A stretch of DNA of 64,000 bases from an uncultured Planctomycetia bacterium. Lineage in GTDB: Bacteria > Omnitrophota > Gorgyraeia > Taenaricolales > CAZCCH01. Every line of letters starts with the position of its first letter. The first letter of the stretch is position 1. This document shows, in pieces, positions 9,619 to 58,080 of the stretch. The stretch spans positions 17,519 through 81,518 of the forward strand of contig CAZCCH010000002.1 in NCBI GenBank assembly GCA_964497315.1, in the 5' to 3' direction. The notes under the pieces are model-generated. The model saw nothing but the letters and a program-made list of their open reading frames with translations, ran no database searches and was not told the DNA's origin. The position numbers were made by a program, and so were the translations under genes.

Positions 9619-11018
9619 GATTTAGTTACCCTGTAATCATCAAATGGAATTCTTTTATTCTTCAATACCTGATAGTTCTCATGACCTTTGCCTGCTATAA
9701 GAACACAATCATCCTTTTTGGCTGTGTCAATAGCCTCTTTTATTGCCTGTCTTCTATCTAATATAACCTTGTGTGCATCTGATGAGTCTATACCAACTAA
9801 AATCTCATCAACTATAGATTCTGCAGATTCTGTCCTTGGATTGTCATTTGTTATAAAAACCATATCGGAAAGTTCACTGGCAGCCTTACCCATCTTAGGC
9901 CTTTTGGACTTATCCCTGTCTCCACCACAACCAAAGACAGTAAGAATTCTCCCCTTACATATTTCACGAAGGGATGATAGGACATTTCTCAAGGCATCTT
10001 CTGTATGTGCATAGTCAATGAAGACTGAAAAAGGCTGACCGCATACTACTTGCTGCAACCTCCCAGGAACAATTTTTAGGCCTTCTATGCCTTTTTTAAT
10101 GTGTTTAAGGCTTATATCTTGACTTAGGCTACATGCTATGGCTGCTAGTATGTTATAGATGTTGTGCCTGCCGAAAAGTGCGCTTTCTATTTCTACTTCT
10201 CCCTTTATCGTATCCACAGTCAAGCTTAAACCTCCAAGGTGGGTACGGACATCCTTTAGGTTTACATCTGCTTTTTTAGATATAGAATATGTAAACCTCT
10301 TACAGGAAATCTCTTTAAAAAGTGTCCTACCAAAATTATCATCTATATTTAATATTGCAAAAGAATGTTTTGGAAGATTCTTGAAAAGCTTAGCCTTGGT
10401 ATCTTTATAATCCTGCATTGAGTTATGGTAATCTAGGTGCTCTCTTGTTATATTAGTAAAAACTGCACTATTAAATTTTAGGCCCTCTATCCTGCCCTGA
10501 TGTATCGCATGTGAAGAAACTTCCATTACAACTGAATCCGCACCTTTATGGGCCATAGTATTTAAAAAGGAATGCAATTCTAAAACTCCGGGTGTTGTGT
10601 TTTTCGCCTCAATAGAATGAGTTTTAAATCTATAATTTATAGTTCCTATTACACCGGGATTAAAATGCGCCTCTTTTAATATAGACTCAATTAAATAAGA
10701 AGTGGTAGTCTTGCCATTGGTGCCGGTAATGCCTATTAATTTTAAGTTAGTTAAGCCTTCTTTGTAGAAGTTTTTAGCTAATTTAACTAAAGCTTTCCTT
10801 GTATCTTTTACAACAATTTTTTTTACATCCTTACTACAAGGAAAGTCTTTCTCTGCTACTATGCACCTAGCACCATTTTGCATTGCTTCTTGTATAAAAT
10901 CATGACCATCTAAAGAATTACCTTTGATAGCCACGAACATAAAACCTTCCTTTATGTCCTTGGAATTACAGCTTATACCTTGTATCTCTAAATTTTTTAT
11001 TAAGTTATCAATCTTCAT
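9594..11018 (-). CDS. murE: UDP-N-acetylmuramoyl-L-alanyl-D-glutamate--2,6-diaminopimelate (or L-lysine) ligase
   Basis: 474 aa with the GITGTNGKTTT P-loop, a Mur ligase fold and a DNPR-containing C domain. Confidence 0.9.
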   Translation of the reverse strand: MKIDNLIKNLEIQGISCNSKDIKEGFMFVAIKGNSLDGHDFIQEAMQNGARCIVAEKDFPCSKDVKKIVVKDTRKALVKLAKNFYKEGLTNLKLIGITGTNGKTTTSYLIESILKEAHFNPGVIGTINYRFKTHSIEAKNTTPGVLELHSFLNTMAHKGADSVVMEVSSHAIHQGRIEGLKFNSAVFTNITREHLDYHNSMQDYKDTKAKLFKNLPKHSFAILNIDDNFGRTLFKEISCKRFTYSISKKADVNLKDVRTHLGGLSLTVDTIKGEVEIESALFGRHNIYNILAAIACSLSQDISLKHIKKGIEGLKIVPGRLQQVVCGQPFSVFIDYAHTEDALRNVLSSLREICKGRILTVFGCGGDRDKSKRPKMGKAASELSDMVFITNDNPRTESAESIVDEILVGIDSSDAHKVILDRRQAIKEAIDTAKKDDCVLIAGKGHENYQVLKNKRIPFDDYRVTKSCLQLKTY

Positions 11019-11124: not shown

Positions 11125-12798
11125 TTACTTCGATTCTAGATAAGCAATAGATTCTTTAACAACATTTCCAAACGCAGGAGCTGCTACTAAACTTGCATAA
11201 TAAAAAGGTCTTGGTTCATCTACAATAACTATAACTGAAATCAAGGGATCATCGGCAGGTGCAAACCCTACAAATGAACTAATAAATTTAGAATGCGAAT
11301 ACCTGCCATCTTTAGCTACCTTCTGAGCAGTTCCTGTCTTGCCTGCTACGGGGTAACCTTCTATCTTAGCATTTTTCCCGGTACCTCTTTCAACAACACC
11401 TGTTAGAATACCAGTCAATTCTATCGCTGTTTTTCTATCTAGGACCCTTCTAACATAAAAGGTCTTAAAAGACTTTATTAGACCCCCTTTATCATCTATT
11501 ATGCGATCAACCATATAAGGCCTTACCATAACCCCTCGATTGGCTATCGCTGAAACCGCACAAACCATCTGCAAGGCAGTTACGGCTACTTCCTGCCCCA
11601 TTGGTATGGCACACATAGAAAGCCTTGACCAATCCTCAGGCTTCCTGATCATACCAATAGCCTCACCAGGTAAGTCAATACCAGTCTTCTCACCAAAACC
11701 ATAGGTTTTTATATAATTATATAGGTTTTTTTGACCCAAGTGTTGTGCGGCCTTTATGGTGCCTATATTGCTTGAGACTTCTATGATTTCAAAAAAATTC
11801 AACCAGCCATGAGGTTTATGATCATGCAAGGTATGACGGCCTATCTTGTATGCCCCGTTTTCACAAAAGATCTTTTCTTGTGGGTCTATTGAGTCTAAAT
11901 CTAAGATTGCTGAGGCAGTAATAACCTTAAAAACAGAACCAGGCTCATACATGTCAGTTATAGCCCTATTACGCCTGGACTCTGACTCTGATCTTTCAAA
12001 TATGTTCGGATCATAGGTAGGCCTATTGGCCAAGGCTAGTATTTGACCATTTCTTGGATCCATAGCGATAATAGTTGCTGCCTTTGGACTAAAATCCTCA
12101 TAAATTCTATCTAATTCAGTTTCTACAATGTGTTGTATTGCCTCATCTATGGTAAGAACAATATTATGCCCCTCAACTGCAGGTACAAAGTTTTGCTGCA
12201 TAAAAACCAATTCCCGCAGCTTTGCATCCCTCTTTGTAATCTTAAAACCTGGTTGTCCTTTTAAGAATTCATCATAGACAAGTTCTATACCTTCTAGGCC
12301 AACATTGTCCAATCCTGCAAAGCCTAATACATGTGAGCCTAATTCGCCATTTGGGTATACCCTCTTAGGTTCTTTTATTACCCCAAAAGCCCTAGGGTTT
12401 AGCTTGGTTATTTCTTTAGAGATATCATCAGATGTCTTTCTCTTTAGCCAAACAAATGAAGCATCCTTTGTAAGTCTTCGTAAAACCTCAGCTTCCTTCA
12501 TGTCCAAAATCTTAGATAATTCTCTACTTGTAAGCTGGGGGTCTTTTATTCTTTTAGGATTTACGTAAACAGAGTCCATATTTAGGCTAGTTGCAAAAAT
12601 GCGCATGTTCCTATCATAGATATCTCCCCTTTTAGGTTCTGTACGTACCATCATGCTATGCTGCTTATTAGCAACATCGCAAAGATAGTCTGATCTAAGC
12701 AACTGAATATAAAAAAGGCGTACAGTCAAGCAAGAAAGTACGCCAAAAAGAAAAACAAAAATCAAACAGGCCCGTTTGTTGTAGGAGAGTCTGCCCAT
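11125..12798 (-). CDS. ftsI: Peptidoglycan D,D-transpeptidase FtsI (class B PBP)
   Basis: 557 aa. It has an N-terminal TM anchor, a PBP dimerisation domain and a transpeptidase domain (SVFK active-site motif, KTGTA). Confidence 0.9.
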   Translation of the reverse strand: MGRLSYNKRACLIFVFLFGVLSCLTVRLFYIQLLRSDYLCDVANKQHSMMVRTEPKRGDIYDRNMRIFATSLNMDSVYVNPKRIKDPQLTSRELSKILDMKEAEVLRRLTKDASFVWLKRKTSDDISKEITKLNPRAFGVIKEPKRVYPNGELGSHVLGFAGLDNVGLEGIELVYDEFLKGQPGFKITKRDAKLRELVFMQQNFVPAVEGHNIVLTIDEAIQHIVETELDRIYEDFSPKAATIIAMDPRNGQILALANRPTYDPNIFERSESESRRNRAITDMYEPGSVFKVITASAILDLDSIDPQEKIFCENGAYKIGRHTLHDHKPHGWLNFFEIIEVSSNIGTIKAAQHLGQKNLYNYIKTYGFGEKTGIDLPGEAIGMIRKPEDWSRLSMCAIPMGQEVAVTALQMVCAVSAIANRGVMVRPYMVDRIIDDKGGLIKSFKTFYVRRVLDRKTAIELTGILTGVVERGTGKNAKIEGYPVAGKTGTAQKVAKDGRYSHSKFISSFVGFAPADDPLISVIVIVDEPRPFYYASLVAAPAFGNVVKESIAYLESK

Positions 12799-16404: not shown

Positions 16405-16414
16405 ATTTAACTAT

Positions 16415-16490
16415 GGTGGGCAATAGAGGATTCGAACCTCTGACCTCGTGCATGTGAGGCACGCGCGCTAACCGACTGCGCCAATTGCCC
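16415..16490 (-). tRNA. tRNA-Val (anticodon CAC)
   Basis: The reverse complement folds as GGGCAAT/ATTGCCC acceptor, GCGC/GCGC D-stem, CGTGC-CTCACAT-GCACG anticodon arm, AGAGG-TTCGAAT-CCTCT T-arm, and encoded CCA. It is 76 nt. Confidence 0.9.
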
Positions 16491-16508: not shown

Positions 16509-16583
16509 TGGTGGGCCCAGAAGGATTTGAACCTCCGACCAAGTGATTATGAGTCACCTGCGCTACCGCTGCGCTATGGGCCC
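16509..16583 (-). tRNA. tRNA-Met, elongator type (anticodon CAT); tRNA-Ile2(LAU) cannot be excluded
   Basis: The reverse complement folds as GGGCCCA/TGGGCCC acceptor, GCGC D-stem, GGTGA-CTCATAA-TCACT anticodon arm and GGAGG-TTCAAAT-CCTTC T-arm, with encoded CCA. It has no 3xGC anticodon stem, so it is not the initiator. Confidence 0.85.
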
Positions 16584-16640
16584 ATTTAGTAGTGTTTCAG
16601 TAAAATTGGATTATACCAGATTTAGGTAGGGTTGTAAAGG
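16547..16640 (-). repeat. Direct repeat copy 1: tRNA-Met 5' half plus its promoter, duplicated at 21478-21562
   Basis: About 90% identity to 21478-21562. The second copy lacks 11 nt (CCGCTGCGCTA) in the D-arm. Confidence 0.85.
16610..16638 (-). promoter_or_regulatory. Sigma70 promoter of the tRNA-Met/tRNA-Val operon
   Basis: The minus strand reads TTTACA (16638-16633), a 17-nt spacer, then TATAAT (16615-16610), about 25 nt upstream of the tRNA-Met 5' end. Confidence 0.7.
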
Positions 16641-16647
16641 GGGATTT

Positions 16648-16932
16648 TTAGTGTCTTTTGGTGTTTTCGTAGTTCTTTCTTAAAATCCTGATAAATCTAA
16701 TAAGAAGATAAAGAGGGTAATAAATAAATGCTAGCCTGACACCAGCACCAAAAAGCAAAGCAGACATTTTATTATCAAAATAAGGATATGGGTTTTTTAA
16801 AAAGATCTTTGTGAAGTATTCAAAGTGATGTCCTGTTGGAACAGCTATCCATACAAGTGCAATGCTAACAACCATAGCAGCAAAAACAATATAAGCTTCT
16901 CTTTTTATGATTCTTTTTAGTTTTTTATCCAT
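16648..16932 (-). CDS. Small hypothetical membrane protein (two predicted TM helices)
   Basis: 94-aa ORF with host-like low GC and two hydrophobic segments. I recognise no family. Confidence 0.45.
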   Translation of the reverse strand: MDKKLKRIIKREAYIVFAAMVVSIALVWIAVPTGHHFEYFTKIFLKNPYPYFDNKMSALLFGAGVRLAFIYYPLYLLIRFIRILRKNYENTKRH

Positions 16933-16991
16933 TTAAACACTTCCTTATGCAATATTATACTGCTACAAGGATATGGAAGTCAAGGTAGGTA

Positions 16992-19900
16992 TTATGCTCC
17001 TGTTTTTGTTTCTTTATGGGACTTTAGCTCTTCAAGGAGTTGTAGTGTTTCTTCTGTGATATAGTGAATTTCATCAATAAATGCAGGTAGAGTTCTTAGC
17101 TCTGTAGCAATAAGTCTAATTAAGATTAAACCTCTTCTGCGTAATTCTTCGGCTGCTTGCTCAATAGTTTCACAAAGAATAACAAGCTCATATCCTAGGG
17201 CTGCATTTAATATATCAACATCTCCTTTAAGATGTGCAGTGTCTCCTGTTATGGCAATTGTTGTACCTTTAGGTAGTTCTAGGTCTTGTAGTGCAGGTAG
17301 AATGTTTTCACCAAGGGGTGATTCTATTATTAGACCTGTGGATAGGTTTTTAAAGTCACCAAATAGGCTTTCAGCGAAGCGACTCAACAAGCCTTTTATC
17401 TTAGAAACCAATAACTCTGTTACCTTATTACATGCTTCATCAATACCTTCTAGCTCCCTATACCGTTCAGCCTCAGCTCCGTCCATGCCCATAGATGTCA
17501 GTATCGTTTTTATCTGTGGATATCTTTTTCTGACTTCCTTTGCTAATTTCGGACCTGCCTCGCTATCAATTTTACCGGTTTCTTCATCTAGCATATTTAA
17601 ATCTGCTACCATTAAGTGAGGAAGTATTTCTAATTCATCTAATTTCCTTAATGCATCTTGTGGGTTAACTGTCTCAATAACCTTATATCCTTCTTTAGTA
17701 AAACCTCTTACTAATCTCTCTCTCTGATCTCCATCATCTTCTACTAAAAGAATTCTTATAGGTTGTGCTCCATCCTGCTCAGTGAAGCGGGGTCTTTCTC
17801 CAGCTAACCGCTGTTCCGACCTTTCTATGCTGGCGAAAGGTCCATATTCTACATCTAACGGATTTACCTTACCTTTTATCTCACTAAATCTGGTCTCATT
17901 TTCTTCTCTTGGTACTTTTATGGATGGGGGTTCGTTGTTAGGAAAAGGTAAGGGCCAGATGAACCCAAGGTCGTAGAATAATTGCCTTGCCTCATCAGGC
18001 ATAAGGTATTTTAAATATACATATGCTTGAGAATCACCGCCTCCTTTTACACACTGACCGGAAAAGAATTCTGGGACAAAACTCCTCAATCCAGAGGCCA
18101 AAAGTACCATGTCGTTAACTACTATGGCATGAGAGAGCGACGTATATGCAGACCCAAAATGCCTATTATCTTTTGAAGTCTCGTATATAACTTCCAATAA
18201 ACGTCTGAACTTATCTGGGTATTTTTTAGATGATAACGCAATGCAATCGTGAAGTATTTCGTGAAGAATAATCCAGTCAATGTCAATTCCGCCTACCACA
18301 ACAACCCTTTGAAAGGGTCGTCCAAATTCCTTTTCTAAATACTCAAATGACTCCTTATTATGGGTATCGTCTCTGTTTATATATACCGCGGTACTAATAA
18401 TACCCATGGCGTCATATTTTGACAATAACCGCAGAATTTCCTTACAAATTGTTTCGTCTACAATCACCATTAGTCCTGGCTCCAAAAAACCCTCCCTAAC
18501 AATTCCTGTCGGCAAAAACTCCTCAGCCGCAAACAACCTTCTTGCCTTAGTAGTGCTGTGCATTCGCTCGCCGGTTTTTAAATGGTCCTGTCCAGAGCTA
18601 TTACTTTCTGAAAACCTGGCTTCTGCTTCTCGTGCCCTCTCTATTTTTTCATTATCATTCTGCTCAGTGAAGCGGGCCCTGCAGACAAATAATCGCCATT
18701 TGTCTAAAGATATTTCCGGAACTTCAACTATGGGCCTTTCACTATCAGTGTCATTTTCAGTCCTTTCTTTAAACCAGATGCTGCCAAGGACATGGTCTAT
18801 CACCGGTTCTATAGGTACCTCTACCCTTTCAGATTCATTTTCAGGTGAGAAAACTACTGCAGTAGAAATACCTCGATCTTGTTTGTTTCTTAACCAGGTA
18901 ACTACAGTTTGTTTTCTATTATATTCATCACTGGCCATCTCATTTAAATGCTCCACAAGAGACTTCACCAAGTCTACCTCGTGATACTCTACGCCTTCCT
19001 CCTCTATCAATAGCTCTTTAAAAACCTGTTCGGTAGTGGCATCTATAGTCATTCCCAACTCCGTTCTCCTTTTAAAAGCCGCCTTAACGTACTCCATTAC
19101 CAAATCAGGATCTATACCATCATCATCTGCCAATCTTCTTCTAAAATTCTGCAGATAAAACGCGAAGTTCACAATCTCTGCTAAGCTTGGCCTATCAATC
19201 TCTGCCTTATGTAAGGCTCTCCTAATCTTCATTAGTTCGTCTAAGCGTTCAGCTTCTATATCCCATTCTCCATCTAATACATCTTCGAATGATTCTTTGG
19301 CGCGGACATTGCAGGCCTGAACCATTCCCCATGCTGCCTTCATTCTTACTGAAGAATGATTACTTTTATCTTTAAAGATTTCCTCCATGGCTTCATAGCC
19401 ATCATCCTCAAAACGGGCTAACGTATATGCAGCGTGCACATGTTTAGAAGAAGGTGTTAAAAGATGCCCTCTCATAAACTGTACTATTTCTTGAGCTATC
19501 TCCCTCTCTCTCCTGAGCATGGTTAAGGCCTCTGCAGCAAAAAGGGCTACATTTGCATTCCGGCCCACAGCTGCCCTTTTTAAGGCTTCCAGGGAACTGG
19601 GGTCACCTATATAACCTAAGGCTTCAGCTAGCCTGTAACGAAAGTCATCGATTCTTTCAGGCTTGGGCGTATCAGGTTCGTAAGAAGAAATGAGCGCTTC
19701 ATTCAGATGAGGTGCTACTGCAACGCCCTTTCTGACAAAAGAGGACATTGCCTCATGTTGAACATGCGCACTCCTATGGGCCAAGCACCTAAGCAATAAT
19801 CTGAGGGCTTCTTGGTCATCATATCCAGCTACAGTTCTCACAGCTGACACTAATGTGTCTGAATCGCCAGCACCTTCTGCTACAAGAGCTGCAATTGCCA

Positions 19901-21128
19901 ACTCTCGTTCACCATCCTGCTCAGTGAAGCGGGCGGGGGATTTGGTGAAATCTAACATATCATGCGCCTTCGGTGCTGGCGCCTTATCTTTATATCCCAC
20001 AATTCCCTTAAGATAAAACCAACCGTCGCAGCGATCAAGCCCATCTTGGACATGAGTCCAATTACCGCTACGCCCATACCTTTCTCTCTTTATTTTGGTC
20101 AGACCCTTCAGAATACCCTTCAGCGTATTCCCGTTACCTAAAGGTGCAAAATTCTCTCGGAGCATATTATATAATAATTCCGCTGGAATGTGTGTTTCGT
20201 CCTTAGGGGCTGCCTGACGTAATCTCTCAACCTCTGATCTGTCGATCAGGCCCAGCAAAAATAATCCTCTCAATGTATAAATCGCTGTGCTTGCGCTGCG
20301 CTTACACTCATCAAAGTCTAAATCTGCCCCATAACAGTCAGAAAAAGTCCTCATGACAAAAATGTTTGGGGTCTTGGTTGTAATTTCGTAGCCTCTAAAA
20401 TGCTGCTCAGCTATTTTTCTCTGAATATTGACAAGCTCTATTATTTTACCGCGTTCTCTTCTGGAGGGATCGACATACAAGGCGTATATGTCAATTCTAG
20501 AATCTTCCTCACAAATACCAATGGTCTGTTCAAAAACATAGGGTGCTTCTGCCTTTAATTTTCTGGTGGCGAAATACGCAAAGCTATCTATCGGCATACG
20601 AACCCAATTTGTCTTAAGCAACCTCTCTAAGGGTGCGACTCTCAGACGAATTATAGCAGGTTCGGCATGCCAATACAGCAACACGATATCCTGATCGTCT
20701 AATTCCTTTTCTTCTTGTAATTCCCTTAATGCTTCTCTGACATCCTTGCCCGGCCTTACGGCCAATTCTGCCTTGGGGTTTAACGATTTGTATAGCTTTG
20801 AGCCACGGCCCCCTAACCAAAAACTCGCCTCTACTCTACCTTCCAAAATTGCTTTCTTCTCCCCTAAACTCTCAGCCGTGATAGTGGGGGGATGTTGAGG
20901 TGGACTTGTAGAGTTTTCAATTTTTTGCTCTAGCTGTTCTCCCTGGTTTGGCCGATCTCCTTCCGTAAACCTTGCAGCTAGTTCTCTTGTAAGCTCTTTA
21001 TCTTTTGCTGTGGTATCAGGCCTGAGGGTCTCTTTGGAAGGGGATGCAAGAATATAGTCTACCCCTATCAGTGACATTGTAAATGCCACAAGTAGACATA
21101 ATGATATTATTTTCTTAGTATAGTTCAT
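16992..21128 (-). CDS. Giant multi-domain protein of unknown function. It has an N-terminal signal or anchor, a possible GNAT-like module, PBS-lyase/HEAT repeats, an HExxH-containing module and a C-terminal CheY-like receiver domain plus a conserved about 130-aa C-terminal domain.
   Basis: 1378-aa uninterrupted ORF with GC about 50-53%, against about 40% in the flanking DNA. Hydrophobic N-terminus (KKIISLCLLVAFTMSLIG). HEAT-like repeats (EALGYIGDPSSLEALKRAA). HEILH motif. REC-like signature IRILLVEDDG...MVADLNM...KTILTS. The motif [AP]RFTEQDG recurs three to four times in-frame. Confidence 0.85.
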   Translation of the reverse strand: MNYTKKIISLCLLVAFTMSLIGVDYILASPSKETLRPDTTAKDKELTRELAARFTEGDRPNQGEQLEQKIENSTSPPQHPPTITAESLGEKKAILEGRVEASFWLGGRGSKLYKSLNPKAELAVRPGKDVREALRELQEEKELDDQDIVLLYWHAEPAIIRLRVAPLERLLKTNWVRMPIDSFAYFATRKLKAEAPYVFEQTIGICEEDSRIDIYALYVDPSRRERGKIIELVNIQRKIAEQHFRGYEITTKTPNIFVMRTFSDCYGADLDFDECKRSASTAIYTLRGLFLLGLIDRSEVERLRQAAPKDETHIPAELLYNMLRENFAPLGNGNTLKGILKGLTKIKRERYGRSGNWTHVQDGLDRCDGWFYLKGIVGYKDKAPAPKAHDMLDFTKSPARFTEQDGERELAIAALVAEGAGDSDTLVSAVRTVAGYDDQEALRLLLRCLAHRSAHVQHEAMSSFVRKGVAVAPHLNEALISSYEPDTPKPERIDDFRYRLAEALGYIGDPSSLEALKRAAVGRNANVALFAAEALTMLRREREIAQEIVQFMRGHLLTPSSKHVHAAYTLARFEDDGYEAMEEIFKDKSNHSSVRMKAAWGMVQACNVRAKESFEDVLDGEWDIEAERLDELMKIRRALHKAEIDRPSLAEIVNFAFYLQNFRRRLADDDGIDPDLVMEYVKAAFKRRTELGMTIDATTEQVFKELLIEEEGVEYHEVDLVKSLVEHLNEMASDEYNRKQTVVTWLRNKQDRGISTAVVFSPENESERVEVPIEPVIDHVLGSIWFKERTENDTDSERPIVEVPEISLDKWRLFVCRARFTEQNDNEKIERAREAEARFSESNSSGQDHLKTGERMHSTTKARRLFAAEEFLPTGIVREGFLEPGLMVIVDETICKEILRLLSKYDAMGIISTAVYINRDDTHNKESFEYLEKEFGRPFQRVVVVGGIDIDWIILHEILHDCIALSSKKYPDKFRRLLEVIYETSKDNRHFGSAYTSLSHAIVVNDMVLLASGLRSFVPEFFSGQCVKGGGDSQAYVYLKYLMPDEARQLFYDLGFIWPLPFPNNEPPSIKVPREENETRFSEIKGKVNPLDVEYGPFASIERSEQRLAGERPRFTEQDGAQPIRILLVEDDGDQRERLVRGFTKEGYKVIETVNPQDALRKLDELEILPHLMVADLNMLDEETGKIDSEAGPKLAKEVRKRYPQIKTILTSMGMDGAEAERYRELEGIDEACNKVTELLVSKIKGLLSRFAESLFGDFKNLSTGLIIESPLGENILPALQDLELPKGTTIAITGDTAHLKGDVDILNAALGYELVILCETIEQAAEELRRRGLILIRLIATELRTLPAFIDEIHYITEETLQLLEELKSHKETKTGA
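17771..17791 (-). repeat. Intragenic 21-bp direct repeat encoding PRFTEQDG (copy 1 of 3)
   Basis: CATCCTGCTCAGTGAAGCGGG is identical to 19913-19933 and differs by one nucleotide from 18657-18677. Confidence 0.8.
18657..18677 (-). repeat. Intragenic 21-bp direct repeat encoding RARFTEQ (copy 2 of 3)
   Basis: CATTCTGCTCAGTGAAGCGGG matches the other two copies at 20 of 21 positions. Confidence 0.8.
19913..19933 (-). repeat. Intragenic 21-bp direct repeat encoding ARFTEQDG (copy 3 of 3)
   Basis: CATCCTGCTCAGTGAAGCGGG is identical to copy 1. Confidence 0.8.
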
Positions 21129-21201
21129 AGAAATGGGATATCCTGCCTTTGTCTTAAGTTAAAATAAAGTATAGCATAAGATTACCCCAAATGCAAGGCT
21201 A

Positions 21202-21260
21202 AAAATCTAGATTTTGTTTTTATTAACAATATTGAGATATAGTGTGTTAATGGGTGGGGC
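21202..21260 (-). promoter_or_regulatory. Conserved upstream module P1 of the 1378-aa gene: putative sigma70 promoter plus perfect 14-bp palindrome AAAATCTAGATTTT
   Basis: A block of about 55 bp (ATCTAGATTTTGTTTTTATTAACAATATTGAGATATAGTGTGTTAATGGGTGGG) is conserved almost identically upstream of the 858-aa gene at 24291-24345. In gene orientation it reads TTAACA, then about 18 nt, then TTAATA, followed by the palindrome. Confidence 0.5.
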
Positions 21261-21400
21261 AAAAGATATAGTGAGCTAGGTGGTGGGGTATCCTCAAAAT
21301 AGTGGTAGAGGGGTACAATTTGTAACAATCCTTATAAAAGCGGTAGGGGTACCCTTAGTGTCCATATAGGTTGTCCATACTACATTAAAATTGGTTAAGA

Positions 21401-21457
21401 CAAAAAAACTCCTTAAGTCCTTTAGAAATAATGTATTTATAAAGAATATAAGGAGTT
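21401..21457 (-). terminator. Hairpin plus T-tract (rho-independent terminator-like) downstream of the 858-aa gene and the pseudo-tRNA
   Basis: On the minus strand AACTCCTTA pairs with TAAGGAGTT as a 9-bp stem around a large AT-rich loop, followed by TTTTT. Confidence 0.45.
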
Positions 21458-21477
21458 ATAAAAACTTACTTGGTCGG

Positions 21478-21562
21478 TTTATGAGTCACCTGCGCTATGG
21501 GCCCAGTTAATAGGGTTTCAGTGAAATTGAATTATACCAGATTTAGGTGGGGTTGTAAAGGC
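21478..21562 (-). repeat. Direct repeat copy 2: truncated pseudo-tRNA-Met (5' half to the anticodon loop, D-arm deletion) plus an intact copy of the tRNA promoter
   Basis: It retains TTTACA-17-TATAAT (21559-21531) and GGGCCCATAGCGCAGGTGACTCATAA. Sequence diverges after the anticodon loop. The 3' half, T-arm and CCA are absent. Confidence 0.85.
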
Positions 21563-21631
21563 GGAAATATTGCCTGTGGTAAGAAAAATCCATTTGCTTT
21601 TCTTGCTAAAAAGAGATAGGGTGTAGGCGGT

Positions 21632-24208
21632 TTATATAGCTCTTGCAGCTGCTTCAAAAGCATCCATTAGGCGTCTTTCATCTTTAGGAGGATACTGTAT
21701 GCCTATTGTATCTATCATGGCTTTAAGCCATTGTGCAATAGCTGTATAGTTACGCTCTATAAGGGGTATTATTTCAATATTAGCTATTTGTTTAAGCTTT
21801 TGTGTGGTATAAAGAAGGAATTTTGGTCTGGCATTGGGGAGTTTTTCTTTTATGTATCTAGTTAGTCTATTCACTAATTCTCCTATAGCAGCTATAGTAT
21901 TACCTTCATATTCTTCTAAGCTTACTACAATTGCTCCAGCAGCAAAACGTGCTGCTTCTTTTTTAGTATTGACTAAAAATGCAAGAGGTGCTTCAGTGAA
22001 GTGTGCTCCTAAAATAGCTAGTTCCTTAGCATCTGTGCAGTCTAGGATACCAACATTTGGTCTTGAGATGTTTGGCGTTGCTTTGTATTGGAAGTCTATT
22101 TTGTTTAGGGTGTTTGTTATTTCAGTGAAGCGGGAAGATATGTGTTCCGAAGCTGCTACTCCAGCAAAGAAATCAAGCACCTTAGAGCGGCTATTTGGAT
22201 GTTGCTGTCCAGGTATCTCATCTTCTCTTCCAAGTATCCACTTAGCAAAGGCATCTGCAAGGCTGAATGCTCTTCCTTGCTTTACAGCAGCTTCAGGAAG
22301 AAGTTCACTTGCATAGTCTTGCATGTAATAAGGAACTCCCTCTCTGGAGTAATCACCTGATAAAATTGCTCCTGCCAACTGCACATCTTCTGGGACTACA
22401 CCGCTTCCTTCATTCCAAATATGAAAGCCTATTCTACAGGCAAAATTTTCCGGTGTCATGCCTTTATAAACATCTGCTGTTCTTGAGCTGGGAGGGTAGA
22501 GCCGTCGTTCTCCAGGCTTATATGGAACTAAAGCTAATCGGCTTACAAAATATGTATTAATTCTTCCTACAATATCTTGAAGTGGTTTCGTTTCATCATC
22601 AGAAAGACCGGCTTCAGCCGCAGCCTGTGGGACATAAAACACTCCAAAAGGATTCCTGGCGATATCCGCTAAGTTCTGTGCTGAAGCTTGGTTAAATCCT
22701 TCACAATCTTCAATGGCATCAATTGCCCCAGTTGCACGAGTAGGTGATTCGGCCATTAGTGCTGCCACGGCATCCCGTAAAGCAGTGCGGTCACCTTCAG
22801 CAACTTCAATCCCTTCTCTTTTAGTAAAATCAGAAATAACTCTACGTACCAAAGAGGCTGTATTCGGTTCATGTTGTTCTAGGGTGGTGTAGCTTCCTTC
22901 TGCAAAGCGGGTAGGGGTCACATCAATCCATTCAGTTGTGTCAAACGGCTGACTGCCTTCCTCCCGACCAAGATAAATATGGAAACCTACACCAGCCCCC
23001 CTTGTTGATACACTTAAATCCCCGGACACAAACTCTGATGGTGATTCTTTAGAAAAACCTACGCTTATATCTCCGCAATGTTTGATTTCACCTCTTTGTA
23101 ATTCCCCTTTAACCTTATCAGCATTTGCTAATATTCTAAGAAAATCTTCTCGATACGTTGTAAATAATAAACTAGTTGGATCTAAGCTAAAAAAAGCTAC
23201 ACCGTCATCATCTAGCTGTTCTCCAAACCGTTTATCTGGGTAATTAACACTAAATCCTACATCTGGTACATCAGGATTGAAAGCCTGCCGGATTTGAACC
23301 ACAATTCTAGTTCTATTAAAATTTATCCAAGCCCTTGGACCATAGAATTCACGTCCTCCAATCCTCTCGATCTCCTCTAATATTCTGGTAGCTACTGCTA
23401 CTTGCACCTCAGGTGATAGCCTTTCAGCTGGTTTAGCTTCAGGAGGGGTTTGCTCGGACTGAGCACCAGCAAGTTCTTTAATAAAGTCATCAGCTATTGC
23501 CATTCTTTCAGCATCAAGATCAGGTGTGCTACGTAGAGCCCTTAAAGTAGCTAAAGCTTTTTCTTTCTGGCGCAGTTCAAGTTGGACTACTGCCAAGTGC
23601 AACCTAGAATCAACAACCACATTCATTGACTCAGAATGCGATGAGCTCCTAGCAACTTCAATAGCCTTCTCAAAAGCATCAGCAGCTCTTTGTGAGTCAT
23701 TAGATTCTGCATGAATTCTACCAATGCATCTATTGGCTTCCGCAAGAGCAAATATGAGCTTTGGGCTCAATCTGTCCTCTCCAAACAACCGACTACCTAA
23801 TTCGTCCGCTGCAGTTAAGGCTTCTAGGGCTTCTTCATTGTCCTGATATTCCATATAACGTCCTTCTTTTGCTCTAAAAAGAAGGCGTCCCCTTGTAAAG
23901 TGGGCCTCCATAAGATGTGGTTCAGAAAGATCTCCCATATTAATAGCTTCATCAAAGAGCTCTATCGCTCTTCCATAGGATTCTACTCCTTCACTAGCTA
24001 AATCTTTGGCCATATCAAAGTAAGCTTCTGCATCTCGTGCTTTCCCATCATCCGCCCCTAATGCTTCTTCTCTAAACCTAGCTGCTATAGGAGTTTTCCT
24101 TGTCATAGGAGTCCTTAAAGCCCAGACATACTGTGACATTGTGGTATTAATAAACATACATACCACTAATAGTGCTATTATTTTGGTTAGGGATTTGTGG
24201 GATAACAT
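21632..24208 (-). CDS. Large secreted-type protein of unknown function, paralogous in its C-terminal domain and motifs to the 1378-aa protein. It has an N-terminal signal peptide and a TPR-like N-terminal region.
   Basis: 858-aa ORF with GC about 55%. Signal-like N-terminus (KIIALLVVCMFINTTMSQYVWA). RF[TA]E motifs are present (ARFREE, TRFAEG, SSRFTEITN). The C-terminal roughly 120 aa align with the 1378-aa protein C-terminus: SRFTEITNTLNK...ILGAHF aligns with SRFAESLFGDFKNL...ALGYEL. Confidence 0.85.
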   Translation of the reverse strand: MLSHKSLTKIIALLVVCMFINTTMSQYVWALRTPMTRKTPIAARFREEALGADDGKARDAEAYFDMAKDLASEGVESYGRAIELFDEAINMGDLSEPHLMEAHFTRGRLLFRAKEGRYMEYQDNEEALEALTAADELGSRLFGEDRLSPKLIFALAEANRCIGRIHAESNDSQRAADAFEKAIEVARSSSHSESMNVVVDSRLHLAVVQLELRQKEKALATLRALRSTPDLDAERMAIADDFIKELAGAQSEQTPPEAKPAERLSPEVQVAVATRILEEIERIGGREFYGPRAWINFNRTRIVVQIRQAFNPDVPDVGFSVNYPDKRFGEQLDDDGVAFFSLDPTSLLFTTYREDFLRILANADKVKGELQRGEIKHCGDISVGFSKESPSEFVSGDLSVSTRGAGVGFHIYLGREEGSQPFDTTEWIDVTPTRFAEGSYTTLEQHEPNTASLVRRVISDFTKREGIEVAEGDRTALRDAVAALMAESPTRATGAIDAIEDCEGFNQASAQNLADIARNPFGVFYVPQAAAEAGLSDDETKPLQDIVGRINTYFVSRLALVPYKPGERRLYPPSSRTADVYKGMTPENFACRIGFHIWNEGSGVVPEDVQLAGAILSGDYSREGVPYYMQDYASELLPEAAVKQGRAFSLADAFAKWILGREDEIPGQQHPNSRSKVLDFFAGVAASEHISSRFTEITNTLNKIDFQYKATPNISRPNVGILDCTDAKELAILGAHFTEAPLAFLVNTKKEAARFAAGAIVVSLEEYEGNTIAAIGELVNRLTRYIKEKLPNARPKFLLYTTQKLKQIANIEIIPLIERNYTAIAQWLKAMIDTIGIQYPPKDERRLMDAFEAAARAI

Positions 24209-24290
24209 ACTACCTGCCTTTGTCTTATAGAGGTTTTTGAGTTATTTTTAGTAAGTATACCATAAGATTAGCAAAAAAGCAAGGGTAAAT

Positions 24291-24345
24291 ATCTAGATTT
24301 TGTTTTTATTAACAACATTGAGATGTAGTGTGTTAAGGGGTGGGA
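24291..24345 (-). promoter_or_regulatory. Conserved upstream module P2 of the 858-aa gene, homologous to P1 with an ATCTAGAT palindrome core
   Basis: See the P1 entry. Identity with 21206-21260 is over 90%. Confidence 0.5.
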
Positions 24346-24381: not shown

Positions 24382-26130
24382 TTAGAACACCTTCTCTTCT
24401 GCTAGGGTTACATCAAGAAAGCTCTTTAATCTGCGACTTCTGGTAGGATGTCTTAATTTCCTTAATGCCTTGGCTTCTATTTGCCTTACTCTTTCTCTTG
24501 TTACGTTGAATATACTGCCCACTTCTTCTAATGTCCTTGGATAGCCATCGCCTATACCAAATCTAAGCCTAATGACCTTCTTTTCCCTGTCTGTTAAGGT
24601 ACCTAAGACATTTTCCATTTGTTCTTTAAGCATGCTATAGGCAGTGGCATTGGCAGGTGAAATAGCCTTTTTGTCTTCTATAAAATCACCAAAATGTGTA
24701 TCGCCTTCATCCCCAATAGGGGTTTGCAAAGATATAGGCTCTTGGGCAATTTTTAAAATACCCCTTACTTTCTCAACAGGCATGCGCATTTCATAAGCTA
24801 TTTCTTCTGGCGTAGGTTCCTTACCATTCTCTTGCACTAACATCCTTGAGACCCTGATAAGCTTATTTATCGTCTCTGTCATATGGACCGGGATACGAAT
24901 TGTCCTTGCTTGGTCGGCTATGGCCCTGGTTATGGCTTGCCTGATCCACCAAGTGGCATAAGTAGAAAATTTATAACCCCTTTTATACTCAAATTTTTCT
25001 ACCGCCTTCATTAAACCAATATTACCTTCCTGTATTAAATCTAGGAATGTTAAACCTCTATTCGTATATTTTTTTGCAATTGAGACAACAAGTCTTAAAT
25101 TTGCCTCTACAAGCTTCCTTTTAGACTTGTTGTAATGCACTTGTTTTCTTCTTACAAGCTTTAATTTCTGCTTTACTTTAGAGCGGGGTTCTCCTAGTTG
25201 TTCCTCAAGAGAGCGAACCTTTTTCTCTAATCTTTGTATCTTACCTCTTACCCTTCTTTTGCGCATACGCTCAATTTCTCTTTTTAGTTTCTCTATTTCT
25301 GCAATGTGCGCATATACATCGGATAACATCTCCTCTACTACCGAAATATTTAAATCTAATTCTTTTACAAGTTGTGCTATTGCAGCTTGTTTTCTTGTGC
25401 GCCTGAGTCTTTGGGTAACAGAAGATATTTTCCTGATAAGTTTACTTTTTTTAAATTTTATCTCGTCATTTATTACTTCATCTGGGTTGCAATTGCCATT
25501 TAAAACCTTATTGGCTACATTTAGGGATAGCTGTTTTGCAATTTTACATTCATATATAGATTCACGAAATACTTCTTCCTTGCTCTCAATATCCTTAGCT
25601 AGTTCTATTTCGGATTCTCGGCTTAAAAGTGGAATTTGCCCCATCTGCCTTAGGTACATCCTAACTGGGTCATCTAACTGAACTACCGGAGTAAATTGCT
25701 TTAATTGCCCTTTCGGTTCCGCTACAATATGAGGTCTCTCATTTTGCGTCTGTGTAGTAGCTTCTTCTGAAGAATCAACAACCTTAATCTTCTCATTACC
25801 AAGTATAACAAATACTTTATCTATTACCTTAGAAGAGATAATGTTTTCTGGTAAGATATCGTTTATCTGTTCATATGTCAGAAAACCCTTTTCATGACCT
25901 AAGCCAATCAATTTTTTAATATCCTTTGTGTGTTTTTGCTTTTTTTGGCTGCGTATTTTTTTGGTCTTTTTTCTAGGTTTTTTCACCGAAGATCTTGTTC
26001 TTTTAAAGGTTTTTTTGCCTTTAGAAACTTTTATTTTCTTGCCTTTTCTAGAAATCTTTATCTTCTTTCGCTTAAGAACTTTTTTCTTTGGCTTCTGTCT
26101 CTTTTTTCTGGATAGTTTCTTTCTTTTCAT
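24382..26130 (-). CDS. rpoD: RNA polymerase primary sigma factor (sigma-70/RpoD) with an unusual Lys/Arg-rich N-terminal extension of about 70 aa
   Basis: Region 1.2 and a non-conserved region are present. Region 2.4 ([14 protein letters not shown]), region 3 and region 4.2 ([28 protein letters not shown]) are canonical. The N-terminus reads [32 protein letters not shown]... Confidence 0.9.
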
Positions 26131-27894
26131 CTAGGTCTTTCTCCCCTGGAATTTTTTCACTAATATGCTATATTTATTCACCAATACTGAAATTGTCTTT
26201 TCATCTTTTGTGTTTTGAGCCAAGCTGATCTCTTTTTGCAATTCTCGCAATTTTCTATTCATGTTGGTCTTTTCTATTGCCTTTATACAATCATCTAGGG
26301 TCTTTTTTCTATCTGAAGCCCCAACCATCTTTGTGCATATCTCAGGGACAATCTGACATAGAGATTCATCTTCTAAATTCGCTATCAGTTTACCTGGGCT
26401 AATTGAATCTGTCTTTTTTGATAATGTAAAAATTGCCTCTAGCAAAACCTTAAAATCTTCATCTTCGATTTCTGATATTTTGAGTTCTGATTTTGCATAT
26501 GCGATGAGTCGATTGTCTTCTAATAAGAGTCCTATGATCATCTGTTTAGCTACATCGAGGTTTGCCTGTTTGGATTCAAAAGAACTTTCTAAACCAGTAT
26601 ATGAATAGTCAGGCTTAACCTTCTTTAGCTCTGTCCACAAAGCAGTTTCATTTAGCTTCAAGTTTTCAGCCAGCCTTTTTATATATTCTGATTTTAAAAT
26701 GGCATTTGGTACTTTTGCAATAGTGGGTAACATCTCAGCTGTAACCTTGGTTTTACCCTCTGGGGTGTTGAGGTCGAACCTTGAAATCAAGAGGTCAAAC
26801 TTGTAGTCAAAAAGTGTTTTCGCCCTATCTACTACTTGCAAAAATTGTTCTGGGCCTTTTTCTTTAACAAAGGTATCTGGATCATGGCCCTTAGGTAAAC
26901 TTACAACTTTAACGCTTAAACCTTCGGTTAATGCAATATCCAAACCTCGTAAAGTCGCTCGTTCACCTGCCTGGTCAGCATCAAAAACCATTGCTATATT
27001 CTTTGAATACCTCTTTAATAACCTTACATGTTCAATCGTCAAGGCAGTACCTAGTGAGGCTACTACATTTTTGATGTCAGATTGGTAAAGTGCCAGAAAA
27101 TCAAGGTAGCCTTCTACAATAATTACTAAATCTTTTTGTTTTATATGGTCTTTTGCAAAGTTCAGTCCATATAAATGACGCCCCTTACTAAAAACCTTAG
27201 TCTCTGGGGAATTCACATATTTAGGTAAAGATTTATCCAATACCCTTGCCCCAAAACCTATCACAGAACCCTTTGCATTAAATATTGGAAATACTATCCT
27301 ATTACGAAATCTATCGTAATGTGTACCATCTCTTCCTGGTAAAATAAGCCCTGCTTTCTCAAGGGCATTTCGTTTAGTACCATTCTTTGTAGCATGTGAC
27401 AAGAAGGCATCCCAGGAATTGGGTGCATACCCTATCTTTAATTCTGCTACGGTTTCTTCTTTTACTCCCCTTTGCTTTAAATACTGCAAGGCCTTCTTAC
27501 CGTATTCCATTTTAAGCAAACCATAATGGTAAAACCCTGATGCCGTCTGGTTCGCAGAGTAGATATTTGTCACCTCTGATTGCGAAGAGTCAAAAGAGGT
27601 GCTTTTTCTTGGTATTTCCACACCTGCCTTTTGAGCCAAAAGCTCCGCTGCCTCTGTAAATTCTAATCTTTCATATTTCATCAAAAAGTTAAAGGCATTC
27701 CCACCCATACCGCATCCAAAACAATGGTAAATCTGTTTATCAGGACTAACAACAAAAGAAGGGGTCTTCTCATTATGAAAAGGACAACGTGCCTTAAAGT
27801 TTCTTCCGGCACGTTTTAAGGGGATATAGCTTGAGATTATCTCAACTATATCAGTCCTATCTAAAATTTCATCAAGTGTTGTTTGTGGAATCAT
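26131..27894 (-). CDS. dnaG: DNA primase
   Basis: 587 aa. N-terminal CHC2 zinc finger (CPFHNEKTPSFVV...CFGCG), a TOPRIM domain (IIVEGYLD...DADQAG) and a C-terminal helicase-interaction region. It is immediately upstream of rpoD, the classic macromolecular-synthesis operon arrangement. Confidence 0.9.
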   Translation of the reverse strand: MIPQTTLDEILDRTDIVEIISSYIPLKRAGRNFKARCPFHNEKTPSFVVSPDKQIYHCFGCGMGGNAFNFLMKYERLEFTEAAELLAQKAGVEIPRKSTSFDSSQSEVTNIYSANQTASGFYHYGLLKMEYGKKALQYLKQRGVKEETVAELKIGYAPNSWDAFLSHATKNGTKRNALEKAGLILPGRDGTHYDRFRNRIVFPIFNAKGSVIGFGARVLDKSLPKYVNSPETKVFSKGRHLYGLNFAKDHIKQKDLVIIVEGYLDFLALYQSDIKNVVASLGTALTIEHVRLLKRYSKNIAMVFDADQAGERATLRGLDIALTEGLSVKVVSLPKGHDPDTFVKEKGPEQFLQVVDRAKTLFDYKFDLLISRFDLNTPEGKTKVTAEMLPTIAKVPNAILKSEYIKRLAENLKLNETALWTELKKVKPDYSYTGLESSFESKQANLDVAKQMIIGLLLEDNRLIAYAKSELKISEIEDEDFKVLLEAIFTLSKKTDSISPGKLIANLEDESLCQIVPEICTKMVGASDRKKTLDDCIKAIEKTNMNRKLRELQKEISLAQNTKDEKTISVLVNKYSILVKKFQGRKT

Positions 27895-57096: not shown

Positions 57097-57484
57097 CTAA
57101 TGTAACGTTATAGTCTTTTGTATATAGGTCTTTAGCTTCACTACCATCGGCTGCACTTGTATTTTCTGTCTTTCTTACCGCCCTAAGGGCAAAGTAGCCA
57201 TCCCCTGCATTGAATACTGAGTATTCAAAATAATAATCTGTATCATTATTTAGAGGAAAATCTGCTACGAGGTAACCTGTGTCCCCGGTATAGACAGTAC
57301 CCTGGGTTTCAGTAAGATAGAGTTCCTGTGCAACCCTTATCTGGCCAAGTATGGTCCTGGCTTCTGCTTGCTTTGCCTTCTCAACCATTTTACTATATTG
57401 AGGAACTGCAATGGTAGCCAAAATACCTATAATTATAACTACTATAAGAAGCTCTACTAGGGTAAAACCCTTCTTGTTATGCAT
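57059..57484 (-). CDS. pilA: Type IVa pilin (PilA-like)
   Basis: MHNKKGFTLVELLIVVIIIGILATIAVPQY is a class III signal peptide plus a conserved N-terminal helix. Confidence 0.85.
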   Translation of the reverse strand: MHNKKGFTLVELLIVVIIIGILATIAVPQYSKMVEKAKQAEARTILGQIRVAQELYLTETQGTVYTGDTGYLVADFPLNNDTDYYFEYSVFNAGDGYFALRAVRKTENTSAADGSEAKDLYTKDYNVTLDEDGHWGFQGGL

Positions 57485-57534
57485 TAGCCTTCCCTTATCA
57501 TTTTATAATGAATATTTAAAAAACTCGTACTAAA

Positions 57535-57942
57535 TCAATAAGGTCCTTCAAACTTCCAATCACCATCGTGCTCTAATACGACATTGTATGCGTTTCCATC
57601 ATATTTGATCTTGCTGGGACCCACAACCTTTCTCGTGGCAACTGCATTCCAAACCGTACCATTGGCACCTGCTAAAGTATATATAAAATAAAAATCATTC
57701 TCACCAGCACCAGGTGCATGCACAGCTAAATTACCCACGTCTATTGCGTAGTTACTGTTTGCGTGTTCCATTTTATACAACTCTTGTGCAGTTCTAATTG
57801 AACCGAGTATACGCCTGGCCTCTGCCTGCTTTGCCTTTTCCATCATCCTTGCATACTGCGGAACTGCAAGGGTTGCTAAAATACCTATGATTATAACTAC
57901 TATAAGAAGTTCCACTAGGGTAAAACCTTTCTTGTTTAACAT
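57535..57942 (-). CDS. pilA: Type IVa pilin (PilA-like), paralogue of the 57059-57484 gene
   Basis: MLNKKGFTLVELLIVVIIIGILATLAVPQY. The 5' roughly 70 nt are about 90% identical to 57059-57484 at the DNA level. The C-termini are divergent. Confidence 0.85.
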   Translation of the reverse strand: MLNKKGFTLVELLIVVIIIGILATLAVPQYARMMEKAKQAEARRILGSIRTAQELYKMEHANSNYAIDVGNLAVHAPGAGENDFYFIYTLAGANGTVWNAVATRKVVGPSKIKYDGNAYNVVLEHDGDWKFEGPY

Positions 57943-58080
57943 TTCCTTCCTCCTCCTTTGTTTTTATATCTCCTTACTTATTCTAAGTTCTTATTAATAT
58001 AACACTTATCATATACTATAATAACATTATTCTTTTCTAGGCCTTCACCTCCTCTCATTATTATACACTGTGACAGTTTT

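Follow-up and report, generated by a model that had tools for sequence, protein, structure and literature searches.

The window analyzed here is a 64,000-nt stretch of contig CAZCCH010000002.1, from a member of Candidatus Omnitrophota. Downstream of rpoD it contains an intact tRNA-Met(CAT) gene and, 4.9 kb upstream of this in the same orientation, a displaced copy of the promoter, leader, and 5' half of that gene, which probably marks one end of an insertion into it. In transcriptional order the region comprises dnaG (26131-27894); rpoD (24382-26130); p858 (21632-24208), the neighbor upstream of the fragment, whose stop codon is at 21632; the fragment-bearing region, from the half tRNA to a U7 tract (21400-21565); two genes treated here as cargo, p1378 (16992-21128) and p94 (16648-16932); the intact tRNA-Met(CAT) gene (16509-16583; 72.5 bits); and tRNA-Val (16414-16490). 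Past tRNA-Val are genes for a CT398-like protein, RNase H, and RNase P RNA. All of these genes with coordinates, and the features described between them, are on the minus strand. The order rpoD, tRNA-Met(CAT), tRNA-Val, CT398-like protein, RNase H is conserved across Omnitrophota, and in many genomes of the phylum a tRNA gene directly follows rpoD. Loci designated by L-numbers below are Omnitrophota loci compared with the window.

The displaced copy, T1 (21479-21565), and its counterpart T2 (16547-16644), the promoter, leader, and 5' half now serving the intact gene, are the upstream and downstream members of a direct repeat. Its first block (21490-21565 vs. 16569-16644) is 76 nt long and 91% identical; a second (21479-21497 vs. 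16547-16565), across an 11-nt gap, is 100% identical over 19 nt. Altogether, the copies differ at seven positions and by one 11-nt indel. The substitutions cluster in the leader (5/26 positions, vs. 1/55 in the promoter and tRNA; Fisher p = 0.012), which fits gene conversion, and fits as well divergence while both copies were functional genes in different genomes. As the original prediction had it, the promoter copy in T1 is intact: a sigma-70-type promoter (21531-21559) with TTTACA, a 17-nt spacer, and an extended -10 with its upstream TG (TGgTATAAT), matching 11/12 consensus positions. The T2 promoter (16610-16638) has both hexamers identical to these.

The tRNA part of T1 (21479-21504) consists of tRNA positions 1-38 less 11 nt of the D arm, and ends in CTCATAA. 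This 26-nt string, GGGCCCATAGCGCAGGTGACTCATAA, has a single occurrence in the window, with 0 expected by chance. Identity to the tRNA stops after position 38, the last base of the anticodon loop; the fragment had been read as positions 1 to about 37, which was right as to a 5' half running through the anticodon loop and slightly short as to its endpoint. The D-arm deletion reported with it is also there: in the intact gene the 11 nt are flanked by two AGCGCAG direct repeats, and their loss would be a typical slippage deletion. Neither ARAGORN nor the Rfam tRNA model (at E up to 1) calls T1 as a tRNA, in keeping with the pseudo-tRNA status assigned to it. Two simpler origins were considered and ruled out. 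A simple tandem duplication does not account for the arrangement, in that the two copies have unrelated DNA upstream and the repeat breaks off sharply; nor is T1 a degenerate complete second tRNA gene, its forward 3' half being undetectable (775/2000 shuffles score as well).

The same structure is found in four other lineages, L083, L088, L092/L093, and L094, whose rpoD genes are 64-67% identical to that of the window. The common plan is a promoter and tRNA positions 1-38, a break, a conserved stretch of DNA referred to here as the arm, variable cargo, and then an intact tRNA gene wherever the contig reaches that far. The break follows CTCATAA in all five lineages, the next bases being AC, so that the divergence point placed exactly at the anticodon loop from the window alone proves to be common to the five. 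The 11-nt D-arm deletion is confined to the window copy: in L083, L088, and L092 the fragment is identical to the intact gene at 38/38 positions. Like T1, the fragments of L083 and L088 are not called as tRNAs. In L083, the repeat is 125 nt long and 93.6% identical, the fragment is ~1.5 kb upstream of the intact gene, and the cargo is a Fic gene; in L088 the same 38 nt are upstream of an NYN gene and an 89-aa open reading frame (ORF); in L092/L093 the fragment is upstream of an NYN gene and five small ORFs, with a repeat 97% identical over 117 nt; and in L094 the fragment is present, with the contig ending just past it. Insertion sizes are 1.36 kb (L083), 1.51 kb (L088), and 4,834 bp (window). 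The extent of the repeat upstream of the tRNA varies by genome (0, 61, 79, or 87 nt). In L083 and L092, the upstream copy keeps a longer native context (a complete hairpin or a long structured leader), and the downstream copy starts abruptly. The two copies in a genome also carry the same lineage-specific D-loop variants, for example GGTCAGAG in L092.

The arm (21344-21478 in the window; putatively of the attL P' type) is ~135-140 nt long and homologous in all five lineages, while the cargo differs. A profile search (nhmmer) finds one match per locus, always directly 3' of the fragment in loci that have one; the window arm scores 93 bits (E = 1.7e-26) and is covered from 21478 to 21344. In pairwise comparison, the window and L083 arms have a Smith-Waterman score of 67, vs. 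23.3 ± 3.9 for dinucleotide shuffles, 0/1000 of which score as high, and the L083 and L088 arms are 86.7% identical over 135 nt. The window arm is the most divergent. Between genomes, arm identity is 0.70-0.92, compared to 0.73-0.82 for the conserved part of rpoD (nucleotide), while other intergenic DNA of these lineages is not alignable; the arm is therefore under constraint. Toward its distal end (21358-21377) are two direct TGGACA(C) repeats, also present in the arms of the relatives; in the four arms whose sequence reaches this point, the pair is 101-132 nt past the break, with TAGACA as the first copy in L092. Just past the pair the arm stops sharply in every genome, and the cargo beyond is unrelated. 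The whole stretch, TGGACAC pair included, may be a recombination arm.

Repeated motifs are also found at the opposite (right) ends of the insertions, possibly as protein-binding counterparts to the TGGACAC pair in the left arm. There are two copies of TGTCCCC in L088 (~11775-11815) and four of CTGTGACA in L083 (19368-19411). L092 has a GGGGACAGGTT...AACCTGTCCCC hairpin (~10640-10690), and in L085 (7490-7540) the same hairpin adjoins the distal part of an arm.

Relatives also include the uninterrupted sites that would be expected if the gene had been a target for integration, and for which a search had been suggested. The closest relative found, L061/L062, with rpoD 74% identical, has a 78-aa ORF and a TGGACT-17-TATACT promoter after rpoD; the tRNA-Met that comes next matches that of the window over all 75 nt. 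L061 has no p858, p1378, p94, or fragment, and the entire rpoD-tRNA interval of the window is accordingly lineage-specific. L061-L064 all have the identical tRNA, and neither fragment nor arm is found in them. In L003 and L009-L013, rpoD is directly followed by tRNA-Met. There are partial arrangements as well: L085-L087 have only the distal part of the arm, without the fragment, and in L085 the TGGACAC pair survives alone. At L094 5960-6060, a tRNA-type promoter and leader are joined straight to the upstream region of an NYN gene, which is the L088 arrangement (10350-10640) minus exactly the tRNA 5' half and arm. Since exactly this ~185-nt block is lacking, the 5' half and arm behave as a discrete unit.

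Within the window arm are two features that the relatives do not have. The first is an exact reverse complement of tRNA positions 40-49 (CCGACCAAGT, 21468-21477), which starts one base past the break; 5/2000 shuffles score as well. In the alignment (A4), the arms of the relatives have ACGAACTTAGAG, ACGGCTTTGAGA, and similar strings in its place. The local inversion remarked on in the original prediction is real in the window, but, being absent from the homologous arms, is not a defining feature of the structure. The second is a hairpin (21407-21457) followed directly by U7 (21400-21406). The 9-bp stem noticed earlier is the outer part of this; overall there are 21 pairs, with a predicted energy of -18.2 kcal/mol (z = -4.6), and together hairpin and U-tract (21400-21457) have the makeup of a Rho-independent terminator. 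A consensus terminator scan overlooked the hairpin because the stem has fewer than three G-C pairs. It is made of arm sequence, but in the relatives 50.5% of the corresponding alignment cells are paired, vs. 48.8% in shuffles, so the hairpin and U-tract are a local innovation within the arm. Most likely it is the terminator of p858, and most simply it would also end transcripts from the orphan T1 promoter.

Taken together, these observations suggest that the fragment is probably the attL-like left junction of an insertion of 4,834 bp (from 21478 to 16645) in tRNA-Met(CAT), immediately past the anticodon loop. Integration at the anticodon loop was one of the origins first proposed for it, and is supported by four other Omnitrophota lineages, in which the same break is followed by a homologous arm and then by cargo of another kind. 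Because the promoter lies on the 5' side of the tRNA, an insertion here must bring a promoter too: the incoming DNA would supply its own promoter, leader, and tRNA 5' half (T2), which would join the resident 3' half and keep the gene functional, while the resident promoter and 5' half (T1) would be pushed upstream as an orphan. Insertions of this orientation form a rare, "mirror-image" class. That T1 is the resident copy and T2 the incoming one is suggested by analogy with L083 and L092, because there it is the upstream copies that keep the longer native context and the downstream copies that start abruptly. A site-specific recombinase encoded elsewhere would serve the arm, as in other integrase-less elements mobilized in trans, and T1 and T2 would be kept alike by converting or exchanging homologous sequence with each other. 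The window copy looks decayed. With its D-arm slippage deletion, the most divergent arm, and part of that arm turned into a hairpin and U7 that would halt transcripts from both p858 and the orphan promoter, it could be a fossil.

Several results weigh against an insertion of this kind. No integrase or transposase is encoded in the 4.8-kb insertion of the window or in the three other complete insertions (L083, L088, and L092), and no recombinase was found among the tested window ORFs of at least 170 aa; since no complete insertion has a recombinase gene, the elements are not autonomous, and the integrase by which such islands are defined is missing. The DNA to the right of the break does not resemble the right half-site of the tRNA, contrary to a classical tyrosine-recombinase attP core. 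The lineage-specific D-loop variants common to T1 and T2 fit homologous exchange better than a strict crossover within the 7-nt loop. The cargo seems to have been at least partly assembled locally, because the promoter module of p1378 is 89% identical to that of its resident neighbor p858. Finally, collections of viruses, phages, and plasmids yielded no free or circular form: viral contigs scanned for the fragment, junction, and arm gave no match, nor did a BLAST search of the arm against phage and plasmid collections, and the 16 matches in a 17-mer promoter scan of the viral contigs are judged to be roughly at chance level for a collection of that size. Metagenome contigs scanned with tRNA patterns gave no match either, not even to the window's own sequence, which that collection evidently lacks. 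The recombinase, then, is either encoded elsewhere, as the analogy with trans-mobilized elements would have it, or nonexistent; if nonexistent, the structure would be an old scar that homologous recombination and gene conversion have both preserved and reshuffled. The variants common to T1 and T2, the variable repeat extent, and the module common to p1378 and p858 point to at least some part for homologous exchange.

Partial tRNA genes are widely produced by integrated elements (PMC9897764; PMC4383910), and tDNA fragments are a standard signature of integrated islands (PMC4383910). Among the 3919 islands cataloged by Islander, 2083 are anticodon-centered and 159 are of the 5'-fragment kind, for which an upstream position relative to the tDNA is required (PMC4383910). 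The window locus agrees with these 5'-fragment islands in most respects. A full tDNA (16509-16583) and a cognate fragment in the same orientation (21479-21504) are on the same replicon; the fragment is upstream and begins at tRNA position 1, although it is "damaged" by the internal 11-nt deletion; of the recognized crossover sublocations (anticodon loop, T loop, or 3' end), the anticodon loop is the one found here and in L083, L088, L092, and L094; the gene is restored, and there are empty sites. The length of 4,834 bp is within the 2-200 kb allowed, a range that the insertions in L083 and L088 fall below. Two further features are those of integrative elements more generally: unoccupied sites in relatives (L061-L064; L003, L009-L013), and a conserved end sequence beside the crossover, the ~140-nt arm of the five lineages. 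Unlike Islander islands, the locus has no tyrosine integrase within or overlapping it, which is a required filter of that method; the cargo is tiny (1.4-4.8 kb); and the repeat extends past the tRNA into the promoter.

A second comparison is with pTN3-like archaeal integrases, which use the tRNA 5' half, the rebuilt tRNA being expressed from a promoter on the element, an arrangement found "seldom" in bacteria (PMC8371274). Here too the 5' half is the common segment, and the tRNA would be transcribed after integration from an element-borne promoter. However, the pTN3-like elements are archaeal plasmids or viruses with their own integrase, whose promoter serves the tRNA; the present host is a bacterium, the insertion lacks an integrase, and what the element brings is a duplicate of the promoter that the tRNA already had. 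Some integrase-less elements are mobilized in trans, including cis-mobilizable elements (CIMEs) and integrative mobile elements exploiting Xer (IMEXs, e.g., CTX-phi); these have att-like repeats at their ends, carry little cargo, and do not encode a recombinase. The insertions described here share all of these properties, but their target is a tRNA anticodon loop, rather than dif or the att site of an integrative and conjugative element (ICE), and a helper or recombinase is only postulated. Another parallel is with dusA-specific islands, which restore the 5' end of their target gene. These too insert at the 5' end of the target, but this is a protein-coding gene and a dedicated integrase is always adjacent (PMC4482086). 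Integron platforms, finally, are also fixed chromosomal docking sites beside a strong promoter, with small cargo varying by genome. The likeness is in outcome only, as there is no intI here, there are no attC sites, and most cargo genes have their own promoters.

Partial tRNA genes being a standard footprint of integrated mobile DNA, the fragment is ordinary in general terms. Its orientation is unusual: the 5' half and promoter are duplicated, as in ~4% of cataloged islands and seldom in bacteria. It is unusual as well that every complete insertion examined lacks an integrase, and that the same junction and arm, with varied cargo, recur across deep lineages of an uncultivated phylum. What is new here is a conserved, integrase-less "5'-fragment" insertion module at a tRNA anticodon loop, with changing cargo, in at least five Omnitrophota lineages. 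Should a trans-acting recombinase come to light, the locus would represent a new kind of site for capturing cassettes at a tRNA gene, and a source of target-specific recombination parts. In any event, annotators and those searching for small RNAs (sRNAs) should expect spurious "tRNA-half" transcripts at such sites, because these fragments carry an intact, strong promoter.

The main rival to the proposed insertion, which we consider unlikely, is a single ancient partial duplication or insertion in an ancestor of the clade, without a dedicated recombinase, that has persisted as a recombination hot spot. Cargo would have been swapped by ordinary homologous recombination, for which the arm and fragment would provide homology at one end and the tRNA gene at the other; T1 would have been preserved through gene conversion, the tRNA gene under selection being the donor, and recombination between T1 and T2 would have yielded the "empty" sites. 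Much of the evidence could be read this way: there is no recombinase in cis anywhere, T1 and T2 have lineage-specific variants in common, repeat extents of 0 to 87 nt are such as conversion tracts would give, the arms diverge roughly as the host rpoD genes do, the T1/T2 substitutions in the window cluster in the leader, and p1378 and p858 have promoter modules in common. On the other hand, an arm conserved about as well as the core of rpoD needs a function, and this model supplies none; the arm ends sharply past the TGGACAC pair in every genome; and the partial arrangements, with a distal arm lacking the fragment in L085 and a promoter lacking both fragment and arm in L094, resemble discrete recombination products.

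A more elaborate, and improbable, version of the proposed insertion would make the promoter, 5' half, and ~140-nt arm a conserved chromosomal docking and expression site of one Omnitrophota clade, at which a trans-acting recombinase inserts and exchanges small integrase-less cassettes at the anticodon loop. The cassettes may be toxin-like Fic and NYN genes, and in the window a giant secreted protein, making this an integron-like or IMEX-like system on a tRNA gene. More remotely, the T1-arm transcript itself might take part in the reaction.

It also seems improbable, although compatible with insertion at the anticodon loop, that the orphan tRNA promoter has been retained as a platform to drive the cargo, in the manner of the integron promoter Pc. 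The upstream copies examined, in the window, L083, L088, and L092, all have intact promoter hexamers, and the Fic gene of L083 starts 166 nt past the break, with no other obvious promoter or terminator between. In the window, however, there is a strong terminator between T1 and p1378, and p1378 has a promoter module to itself; likewise, the NYN genes of L088, L092, and L094 have their own TTGACA/TTGATA...TATACT promoters. Directly upstream of the NYN start codon in these three lineages there is also a hairpin and T-run, CCCCGTGTGACTTCCCGAAAGGGCTCATGCGGGG TTATTTTTT (L088 ~10650-10700; L092 8150-8200; L094 6100-6145), possibly an attenuator-like leader.

A tRNA-derived sRNA gene, the other function first suggested for the fragment, is harder still to credit. 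It would produce an RNA of ~125 nt (roughly 21524 to 21400) made up of the tRNA 5' half and arm and acting in trans, such as by pairing over 10 nt with positions 40-49 of tRNA-Met. Such a transcript is plausible, because the promoter is intact and close to consensus and a strong terminator is present. The 26 retained tRNA bases have 0 substitutions, vs. 5/26 in the leader (Poisson p ~0.03), the antisense 10-mer is exact, and fragment and arm have been kept in five lineages. Against this, RNAalifold finds no covariation support for a conserved structure in fragment and arm with either 3 or 5 homologs (covariation terms +2.34 and +0.36, both unfavorable), and there is no Rfam match for fragment or arm in the window, L083, or L088. 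Neither the terminator hairpin nor the antisense 10-mer is shared by the relatives, the D-arm deletion is likewise peculiar to the window, and the window terminator would truncate the RNA ahead of the best-conserved blocks of the arm, which are downstream of it. Moreover, the most conserved feature of the arm is its direct-repeat pair, typical of protein-binding DNA. The predicted RNA is probably a by-product rather than the product of a conserved gene.

An assembly or duplication artifact, for which the mere presence of a repeat and nothing beyond it would speak, is almost certainly not the explanation, because four other assemblies, from several samples and different pipelines, have this arrangement too, with 0-1 mismatch over 10-22 kb (the assemblies of the window organism are essentially clonal, with one single-nucleotide polymorphism in 10 kb); in addition, the copies differ from each other as described above, and there are homologous junctions in unrelated metagenomes.

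Of the two cargo genes in the window, p1378 encodes a 1378-aa protein with a signal peptide, HEAT repeats, and a receiver domain (the only Pfam matches are HEAT and Response_reg); no homologs were found among 5.8 billion proteins. Its promoter module, M2 (21167-21258), is the one that is 89% identical to M1 (24253-24344), upstream of p858, and also resembles, at 75-78% identity, the DNA preceding p1060 and p1584 in L055. Upstream of M2 are three degenerate ~30-nt "CCCC-box" repeats (21262-21343), with a fourth box beginning M2 itself; the four tandem boxes are GTACCCCTACC, GTACCCCTCTACC, ATACCCCACCACC, and GCCCCACCC. The p858 module has a single such box (24330-24344). The boxes may be operator or arm-type sites.

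The p858 protein is a family relative of p1378, having a promoter module and an N-terminal leader in common with it. The two were also considered as simple paralogs, but this was ruled out, as these are the only common parts; by homology, p858 has one partial paralog, at another locus. Along with p1060 and p1584 of L055 (4954-8136 and 8305-13059), they make up a family of secreted proteins that are very large and mosaic in structure. A ~90-nt promoter module is common to their genes; the proteins themselves have a signal peptide, then a "...LRP...AARF(T/S)E" leader, as well as repeated RF(T/S)E motifs, corresponding to a DNA repeat, TCAGTGAAGCGGG. The members are otherwise almost unrelated. 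The second cargo gene, p94, encodes a small (94 aa), hydrophobic, and apparently membrane-embedded protein, going by its sequence, with no Pfam match. It has its own promoter (TTGACT-18-TATAAT, 16954-16983), and no detectable homology to the small ORFs in the equivalent position in L088 and L092.

The identity of the intact tRNA also deserves comment. The ARAGORN label "Met" for the gene at 16509-16583 may be wrong, because its anticodon arm seems closer to that of tRNA-Ile2 (the lysidine type) than to that of elongator tRNA-Met. In E. coli, ileX is likewise just downstream of rpoD, as this CAT-anticodon tRNA gene is.

The spacer between tRNA-Met and tRNA-Val is 18 nt in the window, and a hairpin-rich 100-350 nt in several relatives, for example at L061 11540-11699 and 3' of tRNA-Met in L005, L008, and L085 (e.g., GATCCTGAGC...GCTTCAGGATC). 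In several Omnitrophota, short GC-rich inserts without ORFs (~135-215 nt) are found behind tRNA-Met or tRNA-Val, flanked by exact tRNA 3'-end repeats starting in the T loop: L009 9079-9124/9223-9268, L010 3069-3096/3283-3310, L006 9577-9599/9740-9762, L061 11757-11782/11957-11982, and L083 ~19741-19761/19900-19920. They have a GCGCCGAGCGA...GAGGAAAAGCG-like sequence in common and no Rfam match, and look like a miniature integrase-less family targeting the T loop.

Elsewhere in the window, two 169-nt direct repeats (57317-57485 and 57775-57943), 78% identical and 458 nt apart, are found in a stretch without long ORFs amid type II secretion/pilus genes; these may be tandem small pilin-like genes.

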